Origin: an uncultured Nitrososphaerota archaeon
Lineage (GTDB): Archaea; Thermoproteota; Nitrososphaeria; Conexivisphaerales; DTJL01
Assembly (NCBI GenBank): GCA_963842885.1
Contig: CAWJIE010000002.1
Span: 222,020-286,019, forward strand
DNA: 64,000 nt
Direction of reading: 5' to 3'
Shown: positions 49,252 through 51,689 of the stretch, piece by piece
How the letters are laid out: every line of letters starts with the position of its first letter
Numbering within the stretch: the first letter of the stretch is position 1
Notes under the pieces: generated by a model
Database searches by the model: none
Seen by the model: the letters and a program-made list of their open reading frames with translations, nothing else
What the model was told of the DNA's origin: nothing
Made by a program: the position numbers and the translations under genes

Positions 49252-49340
49252 GATTTCTTCGCCTCGATGGGCCTTGTTTTAGCTGTGCATATTTAGTGTC
49301 TACAGAGCAAAAACAGTTGATTTGTCGGTCAAAGCCTGTG

Positions 49341-49348
49341 CCGAGCTA
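49341..49348 (+). repeat. Left copy of 8-bp target-site duplication CCGAGCTA
   Basis: Identical to 50614-50621 and abuts the left TIR. Confidence 0.8.
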
Positions 49349-49373
49349 GATACTGCAAAGTTATCGGTTGATG
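49349..49373 (+). repeat. Left terminal inverted repeat GATACTGCAAAGTTATCGGTTGATG
   Basis: 19/25 ungapped identity to the reverse complement of 50589-50613. Confidence 0.8.
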
Positions 49374-49410
49374 TGGGTTCTTAATAGCATGTCCGTGGAA
49401 CATCTTTGGG

Positions 49411-50601
49411 TTGCTGGCTCGGAAGGCGGTGAGGCAGTCACACATTCCATCTGCGGAGGTCCTCGCCCTTATGCGGTCGTTCAAAGAAATGACGAACGAG
49501 TGCATCCGCATAGGCCTGGCCAACGATGCTTCGACCCTCAGGCGGCTGAGCGTCCTTTCATATCACGCTCTTGCAAGGTTCCGCGTCCCCTCATATTACA
49601 AGCTGTGCGCGATATCAAGGGCCGCTGGCATACTGGCGTCAAGGAAGAAGTCAATCAGGAGGGAGTATCCGACCAAGTCGCCATTCCTGATGAGGCCGAT
49701 ACTGACCTCCTGCTATGGCTTCAAAACTGTCGATGGTGCCCTCAGCATACCAGTTGGATGCGGCCAGCATCAAGAGATATCGCTGAACAGGCATACATTG
49801 GGGGTCCTGTCCGACCCGACTCTGAAAGTGAGGTCCTTCACGCTGACGGAGGCGTCTCTGTCAATCTCCTACTCGAAGGAGGTGGAGGAGGTGAAGGGCA
49901 TAGCGGGCGCAGTCGGCGTGGACAGGAACCTGCGCAACCTCACGGTCGGTGACGAGCGAAGCGTGACCTACTATGGAGTTGCGAAGGCCGTGGACATAGC
50001 GGAGATTGCCAAGAGTGTTGTCAGGTCGTTCAGAAGGAACGACGTCAGGGTTCGGAAGATGATAGCCTCGAAGTACGGGAGGAGGAGGCGCAATCGCATC
50101 CAAAACATCCTTCACAGGGTCTCGAAGATGGTCGTAGCCGGCGCCGTGAAGGAGAGGCAAGCGATAACCTTCGAAGACATCCGAGATATCCGGAGGCTCT
50201 ACCAGAGGGGAAACCTGCAGGGGAGAGGCTACAGAGGGATGATGAACAGCTGGTCCGTCGCTGAAATCAAGAGACAGATCGAGTACAAAGCTACATGGGC
50301 CGGCATACCCGTTTTACATCTAACGAAGGCTGAGACCAGAGGGACGTCGTCGAGCTGCTACCGATGCGGGGAGAGACTCCAAGGGGCAGTGAGGGAGGAC
50401 GTCCAGCACGACAGACAGCTCTGGTGTCCGAAGTGCGAGATGTGGCTCGACAGAGACCTTGTCGCGGTCATGAACATATCGCGCAAAGGGTGGGTGAGGT
50501 TCGCCCATTCAAAAGGCGAGGCAGTTGAAGCTATGAGGGGGAACCAGACGATGCCTGTAATCCTCAGAGTCGATGTCTCGAAGGGGAGCGTCAACCGATG
50601 A
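49411..50601 (+). CDS. tnpB: RNA-guided endonuclease TnpB (Cas12f-like size, 396 aa)
   Basis: RuvC-I AVGVDRN, RuvC-II ITFEDI, Zn finger CYRC...CPKC, RuvC-III DRDLVAVMNI; TTG start about 25-30 bp after CTTAATA. Confidence 0.95.
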   Translation: MLARKAVRQSHIPSAEVLALMRSFKEMTNECIRIGLANDASTLRRLSVLSYHALARFRVPSYYKLCAISRAAGILASRKKSIRREYPTKSPFLMRPILTSCYGFKTVDGALSIPVGCGQHQEISLNRHTLGVLSDPTLKVRSFTLTEASLSISYSKEVEEVKGIAGAVGVDRNLRNLTVGDERSVTYYGVAKAVDIAEIAKSVVRSFRRNDVRVRKMIASKYGRRRRNRIQNILHRVSKMVVAGAVKERQAITFEDIRDIRRLYQRGNLQGRGYRGMMNSWSVAEIKRQIEYKATWAGIPVLHLTKAETRGTSSSCYRCGERLQGAVREDVQHDRQLWCPKCEMWLDRDLVAVMNISRKGWVRFAHSKGEAVEAMRGNQTMPVILRVDVSKGSVNR

Positions 50602-50613
50602 CTTCCCAGAACC
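50589..50613 (-). repeat. Right terminal inverted repeat (reverse complement GGTTCTGGGAAGTCATCGGTTGACG)
   Basis: Pairs with the left TIR; contains the tnpB stop codon. Confidence 0.8.
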
Positions 50614-50621
50614 CCGAGCTA
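50614..50621 (+). repeat. Right copy of 8-bp target-site duplication CCGAGCTA
   Basis: Identical to 49341-49348; includes the TAG stop of the neighbouring minus-strand gene. Confidence 0.8.
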
Positions 50622-51689
50622 TATCCACGAAGGGAGGCTGGTGTCGTTCGCCCTGAACAGGTAGACGGATGTGCTCCAGCCCGTCTGCACAACCACCTGG
50701 TAGGTCGCGTTGTAGGCCAGCGGGAGGTCACTGACGAAGTTGAGAGTCTCGGATGTGGCGCCGTAGTAGACGGTGGCGTTCTCAACGTAGCCGTTCAGTG
50801 TCGTCGAGAGCCCGAAGAGGTTGGATGGAAGGAGGGTGGACTTGCTGAGCGAGACGGAGACCGTCGAACGCGCGACGTTGTAGAAGGCCACGTTGTCAAA
50901 ATGCGCGTCGGCGTTATCAGGGGCAATCCGGAACCCAAAATATGAAGTGGTGTCGTTGGCGACAATCGGCTCATCCACGACGTAGACGGGATCGCCCGGA
51001 TTGTAGAGCGTGCTCGAGTTGGCAAGGAGGTACGCCTCTATCAGCCTGTCGACCCGGGGTGTCCCGAGCTGCAGCTCGTAGTTGGTCCAGGAGTTCATCG
51101 CCCTGACTCCGCGCAACATTATGATCCCCGCGGAGGCGGTGGACTTGTCGCAGATGGATTCATTGTAGTCGGAGTCCGTGCACATGGAGTAGTTGCCCAG
51201 CACCATCGTCAGCGGGAAGGTTTCGTTCCCCGCGGGGTACCACAGGAAGAGGGTGACCCAGACGGAACTTGTTCCCACATTGACGACGTTGCCCGTGAAG
51301 AAGAGGTCAAAGCCGAACGCTATGGAGTTGTTTATCAGAAGCGGAAGGACCCTGGAGGTGCTGTCGTTGTACCACACAAAGGCGCTCTGCCCAGGGTCGT
51401 GGATGTAGAGCGACCTGTCTCCCGAGGCCGCGCCACCGCTCACTATCACGGCGACGCCCGAGCCTGATTCGGCGATGGCCCAGGAGTTGTCGATCAGCTC
51501 GAAGCCCCCGTTGGGCGTGATGGGCGTGAACGTGTTCGGAGCGAAGGTGACCTTCTCGATGGTGAACGGAAAGGCAAGGGGCCCCCCGAACAGGGCGACG
51601 ACCACGACGCCAACGACGAGCAGCCCCACGAGCAGGAGCCTGAATCGCTTAGTGCTCATCCTGGGTTTCTGCGGGGAGACCTTGGACAT
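50619..51689 (-). CDS. Hypothetical membrane-anchored extracellular (glyco)protein
   Basis: Basic N-terminus plus TM helix; many sequons. Confidence 0.75.
   Translation of the reverse strand: MSKVSPQKPRMSTKRFRLLLVGLLVVGVVVVALFGGPLAFPFTIEKVTFAPNTFTPITPNGGFELIDNSWAIAESGSGVAVIVSGGAASGDRSLYIHDPGQSAFVWYNDSTSRVLPLLINNSIAFGFDLFFTGNVVNVGTSSVWVTLFLWYPAGNETFPLTMVLGNYSMCTDSDYNESICDKSTASAGIIMLRGVRAMNSWTNYELQLGTPRVDRLIEAYLLANSSTLYNPGDPVYVVDEPIVANDTTSYFGFRIAPDNADAHFDNVAFYNVARSTVSVSLSKSTLLPSNLFGLSTTLNGYVENATVYYGATSETLNFVSDLPLAYNATYQVVVQTGWSTSVYLFRANDTSLPSWI

Follow-up and report, generated by a model that had tools for sequence, protein, structure and literature searches.

The tnpB gene in the window, by which we mean the whole 64,000-nucleotide stretch analyzed (G000:C2:222020-286019, G000 being the assembly under study), is carried by a discrete transposon that is a DDE-associated TnpB element, distinguished by a probable IS6-like partner and by a TAM-like signature that is confined to one side and backed by controls. 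The sequence-only reading had allowed that TnpB-DDE associations might have been noted in large surveys, and they are in print: the available text of one study already describes TnpB within DDE ends, including copies without a transposase (PMC10691335). The partners of DDE-associated TnpB listed in the accessible part of a 2026 review are ISL2, IS630, and IS1031, not IS6, and the same review treats as open why prokaryotic DDE transposons rarely keep TnpB and what its role there is (PMC13565253). Our literature search, which most subscription papers lay outside, returned no paper linking TnpB to IS6 and none on SWIM-bearing archaeal IS6, and the word TnpB does not occur in the available part of a published survey of thaumarchaeal mobile elements. 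The clade offers a large natural experiment: it comprises no fewer than 92 sites, one closed genome has expanded the element to 30 copies, and TnpB-free relatives whose ends are of the same type serve as a control.

The element is 1,265 bp long and has 25-bp terminal inverted repeats (TIRs), an 8-bp target-site duplication (TSD), and a single intact tnpB. As claimed from the sequence, the octamer CCGAGCTA is present at 49341..49348 and again at 50614..50621 (both + strand). Alignment of the left arm (49349-49373, + strand) with the reverse complement of 50589-50613 (right TIR, - strand) also reproduces the 19/25 identity claimed for the repeats. The left tip is eroded, reading GATACTG in place of GGTTCTG; the right TIR ends in CAGAACC. 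Between them, tnpB (49411..50601, + strand) encodes 396 aa from a TTG start and stops within the right TIR. A TATA-like box read from the sequence (49380..49387, + strand) precedes the start by ~25-30 nt, and an AT-rich box lies at a comparable distance in many copies, as judged by eye, so the tnpB transcript may be leaderless. The convergent neighbor of tnpB (50619..51689, - strand) is a host gene for a membrane or secreted protein with no Pfam or NCBIfam match in profile searches. Its TAG stop lies inside the TSD and was preserved by the duplication. The T-run predicted near the regenerated stop is present, at 49308-49315 rather than 49307-49314 and ~30 nt rather than ~35 bp away. Upstream of the insertion site, window:48440-49030 encodes a type IV prepilin peptidase (PF01478).

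Empty alleles confirm these boundaries. A public metagenome contig (run X2), with 17 differences from the window flanks over 1,187 letters, passes directly from 49340 to 50614 and lacks exactly 1,273 bp, the element plus one TSD, with 8 letters that fit either side. Because this contig is nearly identical but empty, close relatives differ in whether they carry the insertion. A single CCGAGCTA also marks the site in G002 and at a paralogous locus of the same assembly (G000:C4, C4:17099), the kind of empty site that the sequence-only reading proposed to look for. G003, G001, and G004 carry one related 8-mer there by left-flank alignment. By BLAST coordinates, G002, G001, and G004 are free of an insertion, and G003 has a short unaligned gap; three of the four congeneric genomes are thus empty with a similar 8-mer. 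The element is therefore a discrete, truly bounded insertion and not a product of chance. The second copy of the locus (G000:C4:16580-about 24000) starts within the prepilin peptidase gene and is 90-94% identical to G002, as compared with 75-87% for the window versus G002; it reflects either horizontal transfer or a mixed bin.

Profile searches match the window protein to PF07282 (over the cut-off) and to TnpB models, with a score of 99.4 on NF040570 (cut-off 100). The RuvC residues D171, E255, and D349 and four zinc-binding cysteines are kept. In an AlphaFold model (pLDDT 82.3), the best Foldseek matches are AsCas12f, OsCas12f, and TnpB, the Cas12f matches at 14-18% identity. The 396-aa TnpB with a D-E-D triad, a zinc finger, and a stop in the right TIR was thus recovered in every part as first described, and the sequence and the modeled TnpB/Cas12f fold identify it as a likely OMEGA nuclease with a C4 zinc finger. 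Of 91 clade proteins, 84 retain both an intact triad and an intact zinc finger, which argues against both a TldR (nuclease-dead repressor) and a CAST-effector type. Cas12f recognizes a T-rich PAM of the TTR kind, resembling the (T)TR of this clade; the guide here, in contrast, is predicted to be transposon-derived. The clade supplies many archaeal nucleases of ~400 aa for which a TAM of two to three bases is predicted, plus a subclade with another. Two long-branch TnpBs, L007 (G001) and L008 (G004), have the first zinc cysteine replaced and carry CTTT, not TR, before the TSD.

The same architecture recurs throughout the clade. A protein search yielded 2,007 TnpB homologues among 8,000 scored; their sources, where named, are Nitrososphaerales, Thaumarchaeota, and Bathyarchaeia. 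Contig C5 of G000 holds four more full-length tnpB copies, two with an internal stop, whose TSDs are 7/8, none, 8/8, and 8 with a one-base offset. In a first set of 110 tnpB loci, 96 of them assessable for a TSD, the 8-mer after the right end recurs exactly upstream of tnpB in 35/96, and five shifted 8-mers do so in 0-2/96. Pooling the loci gives a TSD in 102 of 248 assessable (repeats of one place included), which reduce to 92 distinct TSD-flanked sites, 79 with a perfect TSD, and element lengths of 1,195-1,521 bp. The closed genome G492 gave 41 search matches, from which 30 full elements were delineated, 23 of them TSD-flanked. All 30 have open frames of at least 373 aa, and nearest-copy identity is 84.6-99.5% for the 29 copies with a full-length partner. 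By sequence, the TIR/TSD architecture is clade-wide, which bears out two expectations of the sequence-only reading: copies with different 8-bp TSDs occur in G000, in relatives, and in G492, and, in the pooled loci, TIR ends are found throughout the TnpB clade. The TnpB protein tree is a quick version in which the long branches L240, L248, and L007/L008 are unreliable. A plasmid search with TnpB returned only TnpBs of 20-27% identity among the matches listed (25 of 104).

These counts bear on whether the element could be an IS1341-type (IS200/IS605) solo tnpB that acquired TIRs and a TSD by chance. Some homologues carry the NCBI name 'IS200/IS605 family accessory protein', but empty alleles lose exactly one 8-mer, 92 sites are TSD-flanked, and no Y1 TnpA lies nearby. 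The 76 upstream ORFs, taken from 53 of 86 loci, include neither a Y1 TnpA nor a serine recombinase, so the cis-encoded Y1 TnpA of IS200/IS605 and serine recombinase of IS607 have no counterpart at the loci examined. This reading has virtually no chance of being correct; the TSD counts versus shifted 8-mers, the empty contig, and the G492 copies refute it. As described in the available texts, IS200/IS605 and IS607 have no TIR and no TSD, whereas the tnpB element here has both (PMC10055086, PMC13565253).

The mover was sought elsewhere in the genome. No IS6-like transposase occurs within the 110 tnpB loci, which reach 1.5-4 kb past the gene, and no autonomous element combining transposase and tnpB was found in these loci or in 60 transposase regions. 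G000 contains four PF13610 matches, three over the cut-off, with one transposase (C5:415125-416255) lying between matching TIRs at C5:414111-417030. This helper candidate has ~377 aa with SWIM, zinc-finger (a second one), and DDE domains; PF13610 is over the cut-off. Homologues are found in 135 of 401 genomes of the class, and a comparison with viral contigs gave one partial match only. An autonomous IS6-like element in G492 has its first 18 nt identical to those of four tnpB elements. A SWIM-finger IS6-like transposase encoded elsewhere in the genome very likely moves the tnpB element in trans. The original proposal of a non-autonomous element with DDE ends and a mover in trans thus gained support from the same-ended IS6-like DDE transposases in G000. 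Its IS6-type assignment stands as IS6-like, but not as strict IS6/IS26, given a score on NF033587 of 106.1 versus a cut-off of 125 and the extra SWIM domain.

The likeness to IS6/IS26 is partial. The right end and the helpers share with IS6/IS26 ends GG at positions 1-2, G at 7, an 8-bp TSD, and PF13610, as given in the available texts (PMC7986276, PMC6807381); the window's left tip reads GA instead of GG. Strict IS6/IS26 elements are ~800 bp with a short cis transposase, whereas the tnpB element has no transposase, and the helper elements differ in the ~377-aa protein, its SWIM and second zinc finger, and their passengers (2.3-5.7 kb) and tandem arrays. Archaeal IS6-like members may lie outside the IS6 family altogether, according to the accessible part of one source (PMC6807381).

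A TnpB-free control set was built from 60 regions around the better helper matches, with 73 transposase matches. In 38 of the 73, an 8/8 TSD accompanies inverted repeats of at least 16/22, none with tnpB; the repeat-pair script favored pairs with a TSD, and a few pairs may be false. These elements were picked by likeness to one transposase, from which the true helpers may differ. Their ends are symmetric, the first 7 nt being identical in 26 of 37. TSDs are kept in 23/30 G492 elements and 38/73 helper matches, compatible with a cointegrate or another route. Among L146-L205, the TIR variant differs from one autonomous IS6-like element to the next but is usually the same at the two ends of an element, which suggests that the ends are homogenized. 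Five TnpB-free SWIM/IS6-like transposons of 2.3-4.6 kb (L156, L161, L168, L171, and L182, in G553, G581, G655, G290, and G266, respectively) carry passenger DNA and form tandem arrays whose neighbors share one 8-bp TSD, as if the target were reused.

The right end of the tnpB element probably has a second function. When aligned, 40 of the 74 candidate right ends support a predicted omegaRNA scaffold at 50484..50613 (+ strand; 5' limit approximate) that overlaps the tnpB 3' end and the right TIR, the latter doubling as the predicted scaffold's 3' end. Of the 16 pairs in the model, 13 show compensatory changes, and pairing holds in 95% of cells; none of 500 shuffles was as good, and slid controls reached 24-42%. 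Covariation places two helices in the window at 50517-50523/50574-50580 and 50583-50588/50602-50607 (+ strand), and the right TIR itself forms one omegaRNA helix. The predicted structure draws all its support from covariation; a comparison with Rfam gave no match to E 1, and single-sequence folding was not significant (z -0.75). A pseudoknot motif occurs in 76/80 elements but overlaps conserved codons, and a compensatory change occurs in a single related pair (L006, L012), which faintly suggests pseudoknot pairing.

By the TnpB paradigm, the predicted guide would span 50614..50633 (+ strand), beginning with the 8 nt of the right TSD copy and continuing into the right flank. Flanks past CAGAACC are mutually unrelated, such that conservation stops at the guide boundary. 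Across 32 sites, left tips differ from the consensus at a mean of 2.0/7 positions and right tips at 0.16/7, and GGYTCY starts 30/32 right ends as compared with 9/32 left ends. Conserved right tips and eroded left tips, alongside symmetric ends in TnpB-free elements, fit a right end that also serves as an RNA scaffold. The idea that an eroded left tip marks an immobile element found no support: the same erosion recurs in related copies that occupy separate sites (L043/L044; L082/L112/L113), and the copy in the window, though young, is eroded too. Several deletion derivatives retain the omegaRNA end and have lost most of tnpB (L341-L343, L348, L349, and L369 in G492; L226 in G002; G000:C1:38557-38641); they could possibly act as stand-alone guides used in trans.

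If the guide starts at the right TSD, a TAM must adjoin the left TSD on its 5' side. The window has TG at this position (49339..49340, + strand), within GTG; the clade consensus is (T)TR. In the first set, TG or TA directly precedes the left TSD at 26/32 sites, against 8/32 on the mirror side and a background of 9.6%. Pooled, TR is found at 79 of 92 distinct TSD-flanked sites and at the mirror position in 14/92, a background level, with kin among the TR sites not independent. Main-clade sites outside G492 contribute 53/59. Within G492, TR precedes all 23 TSD-flanked copies (mirror 4/23; background 14.8%) and 6/7 copies without a TSD, and omegaRNA-only derivatives there have it in 4/4 TSD-flanked cases once oriented. 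TnpB-free IS6-like controls show TR at 4/27 and 3/26 ends (tandem neighbors and repeats removed), in line with background. The autonomous G492 element with the shared 18-nt end has TR on neither side, as is also true of two sibling ends, this in-genome control being one TSD-flanked element. A divergent TnpB subclade with the same TIR type reads TAT or TAC at five sites in three genomes, a small set; that the motif changes despite a common TIR type indicates that it follows the nuclease. TR is missing at six of the 85 main-clade sites, although the triad is intact in five of these, and two sites read CTTT (L007 and L008). Among 20 end matches in G248, TR occurs in 9, distributed by eye as 5/6 left, 3/12 right, and 1/2 unassigned. 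Positionally, the predicted target thus adjoins the candidate TAM at 79/92 sites, and TG/TA probably serves as the TAM for TnpB cutting of the empty site and for element retention.

We favor, with some reservation, a mechanism in which insertion is blind and TnpB then drives retention of TAM-adjacent copies. The transposase would insert a 1.2-1.5-kb unit without regard to TR, generating an 8-bp TSD. From its anatomy and covariation, the omegaRNA would end at the right TIR, with the TSD and right flank as guide. An empty allele would read TAM (TR), TSD, and flank and be cut. The filled allele would be safe, since its left junction offers the TAM but 8 matching nucleotides only and its right junction a full match, but behind ACC. 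When an empty allele appears, either after an excision sealed at the 8-bp repeat or by arrival through DNA exchange, break-induced gene conversion would restore or spread copies lying 3' of TR. Copies without the motif would be lost, such that nearly all survivors adjoin a TAM. Microhomology repair, which could seal such an excision, occurs in archaea. TnpB homing is established for IS200/IS605 (available text of PMC10055086). TnpB-free relatives here show no motif, unlike the shared motif of IS200/IS605, which favors retention after blind insertion. Two comparisons fit retention anecdotally: in the orthologous pair L014/L017 (88% alike), TA and the TSD persist beside a decayed left TIR, and the left TSD is gone from L006, whose orthologue L012 has no TR at the site.

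Several points count against retention, among them the main-clade sites without TR, the choice of control elements, and a TSD in no more than 102 of the 248 assessable loci. Selection must purge ~85% of new copies, and with no TR-less copy among 23 in G492, some 99.0-99.5% alike, the purge must be fast. Cointegration without excision is reported for IS6-family members in the accessible part of one source, which would make empty donors rare (PMC7986276). The first 14 nt of the window guide match G000:C4:17099 (18/20 overall, behind GTG), making the second copy of the locus a potential self-target; an efficient nuclease should cut such a target in its own assembly, unless the contig comes from another strain.

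The G492 bias could also arise at insertion. A particular, poorly sampled helper might have its own one-sided TR preference, co-evolved with TnpB, a possibility we regard as unlikely but worth serious consideration. IS200/IS605 sets the precedent, with TnpA and TnpB reading the same motif in the available text (PMC10055086), and the near-complete G492 bias and the heterogeneous control set leave room for it. However, TR is absent from both sides of the autonomous element with the same 18-nt end and from the sibling ends, the symmetric autonomous ends give little basis for one-sidedness, and the TAY and TR subclades have a common TIR type.

Alternatively, TnpB-omegaRNA might, independently of the guide, bias the trans-acting IS6-like DDE transposase to insert directly 3' of the TAM. 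The occurrence of TR in G492 copies that are 99% alike, the switch of motif with TnpB subclade, and its lack in TnpB-free elements are what this steering would produce. However, strand transfer would then hit positions +1 to +8 behind the TAM, which would be TnpB's own binding site; in known structures, TnpB binds the positions directly behind the TAM. The nuclease is also intact, unlike CAST effectors. A guide-directed form is excluded, as the flanks of sister copies are unrelated. A search in G492 for identical young copies, which would separate selection from steering, found no two, and the lack of identical copies implies time enough for selection. We consider guide-independent steering rather improbable; if true, it would constitute a minimal partnership of OMEGA nuclease and DDE transposase, unlike both CAST and IS200/IS605. 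That G492 has no TR-less copy keeps both steering and helper preference alive as readings. A TAM-like motif found only with TnpB, on one side, means either that homing by itself suffices to shape where a DDE element survives or that TnpB influences the landing site.

The motif might instead be a by-product of landing beside archaeal promoters (BRE/TATA on the other strand), with TnpB a passenger. Insertions of the tnpB transposons do show a bias toward TATA-like words: these occur within the first 22 nt of 15/86 right flanks (3/86 and 1/84 further out), and in 26/91 outward left flanks versus 10/91, the latter partly due to TA itself. However, TR is present in 55/65 sites without a TATA-like left flank and missing both from the mirror side and from TnpB-free elements, making this explanation very improbable for the clade; it may hold for L007 and L008 (CTTT). 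Given the 15/86 right flanks, many guides would be promoter sequence.

The clade can be compared with several known systems. As in IS200/IS605 (IS1341) and IS607, the predicted omegaRNA overlaps the gene and transposon ends, the guide would come from the right flank, and the TAM would lie at the left junction; in those families, however, the transposase reads TnpB's motif, whereas TnpB-free relatives here show none, as far as the available texts describe them (PMC10055086, PMC13565253). The predicted TAM here lies 8 bp from the element end, outside the TSD, unlike that of IS200/IS605. The published DDE-1 to DDE-6 branches likewise hold TnpB between inverted terminal repeats and are mobilized in trans, but they are defined by a DDE gene near tnpB, which has no IS6-like counterpart in the 110 loci here; DDE-5 is among branches with rearranged catalytic sites on plasmids, whereas this clade has the canonical D-E-D in archaeal genomes (available text of PMC10691335). 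DDE-5 also has a comparable motif, a TA placed 8 bp upstream of the end according to a supplement caption (PMC10691335). The clade may fall within DDE-5 or another of these branches. Fanzor in eukaryotic DDE transposons is likewise an RNA-guided nuclease in TIR/TSD elements, in which the 5' TSD contributes to the TAM and the 3' TSD to the scaffold according to the accessible review text (PMC13565253). Unlike in Fanzor, the TSD here is of free sequence and would form the guide seed.

Other structures with these ends were also observed. Miniature elements of ~70 bp in G000 consist of a pair of TIRs, in no case flanked by a matching TSD (G000:C2:16105-16174, C2:22864, C3:50570-50639, C3:169535-169603, C3:171283-171351, and C3:256102-256170). 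L358 in G492 (1,454 bp) joins an omegaRNA end to a piece resembling an autonomous IS6-like element, and its ORF resembles, by eye, the N-terminus of another transposase. L096 and L110 have identical left sites and different right flanks, with a TSD present in one and absent in the other, which we read as replacement of a flank after insertion.
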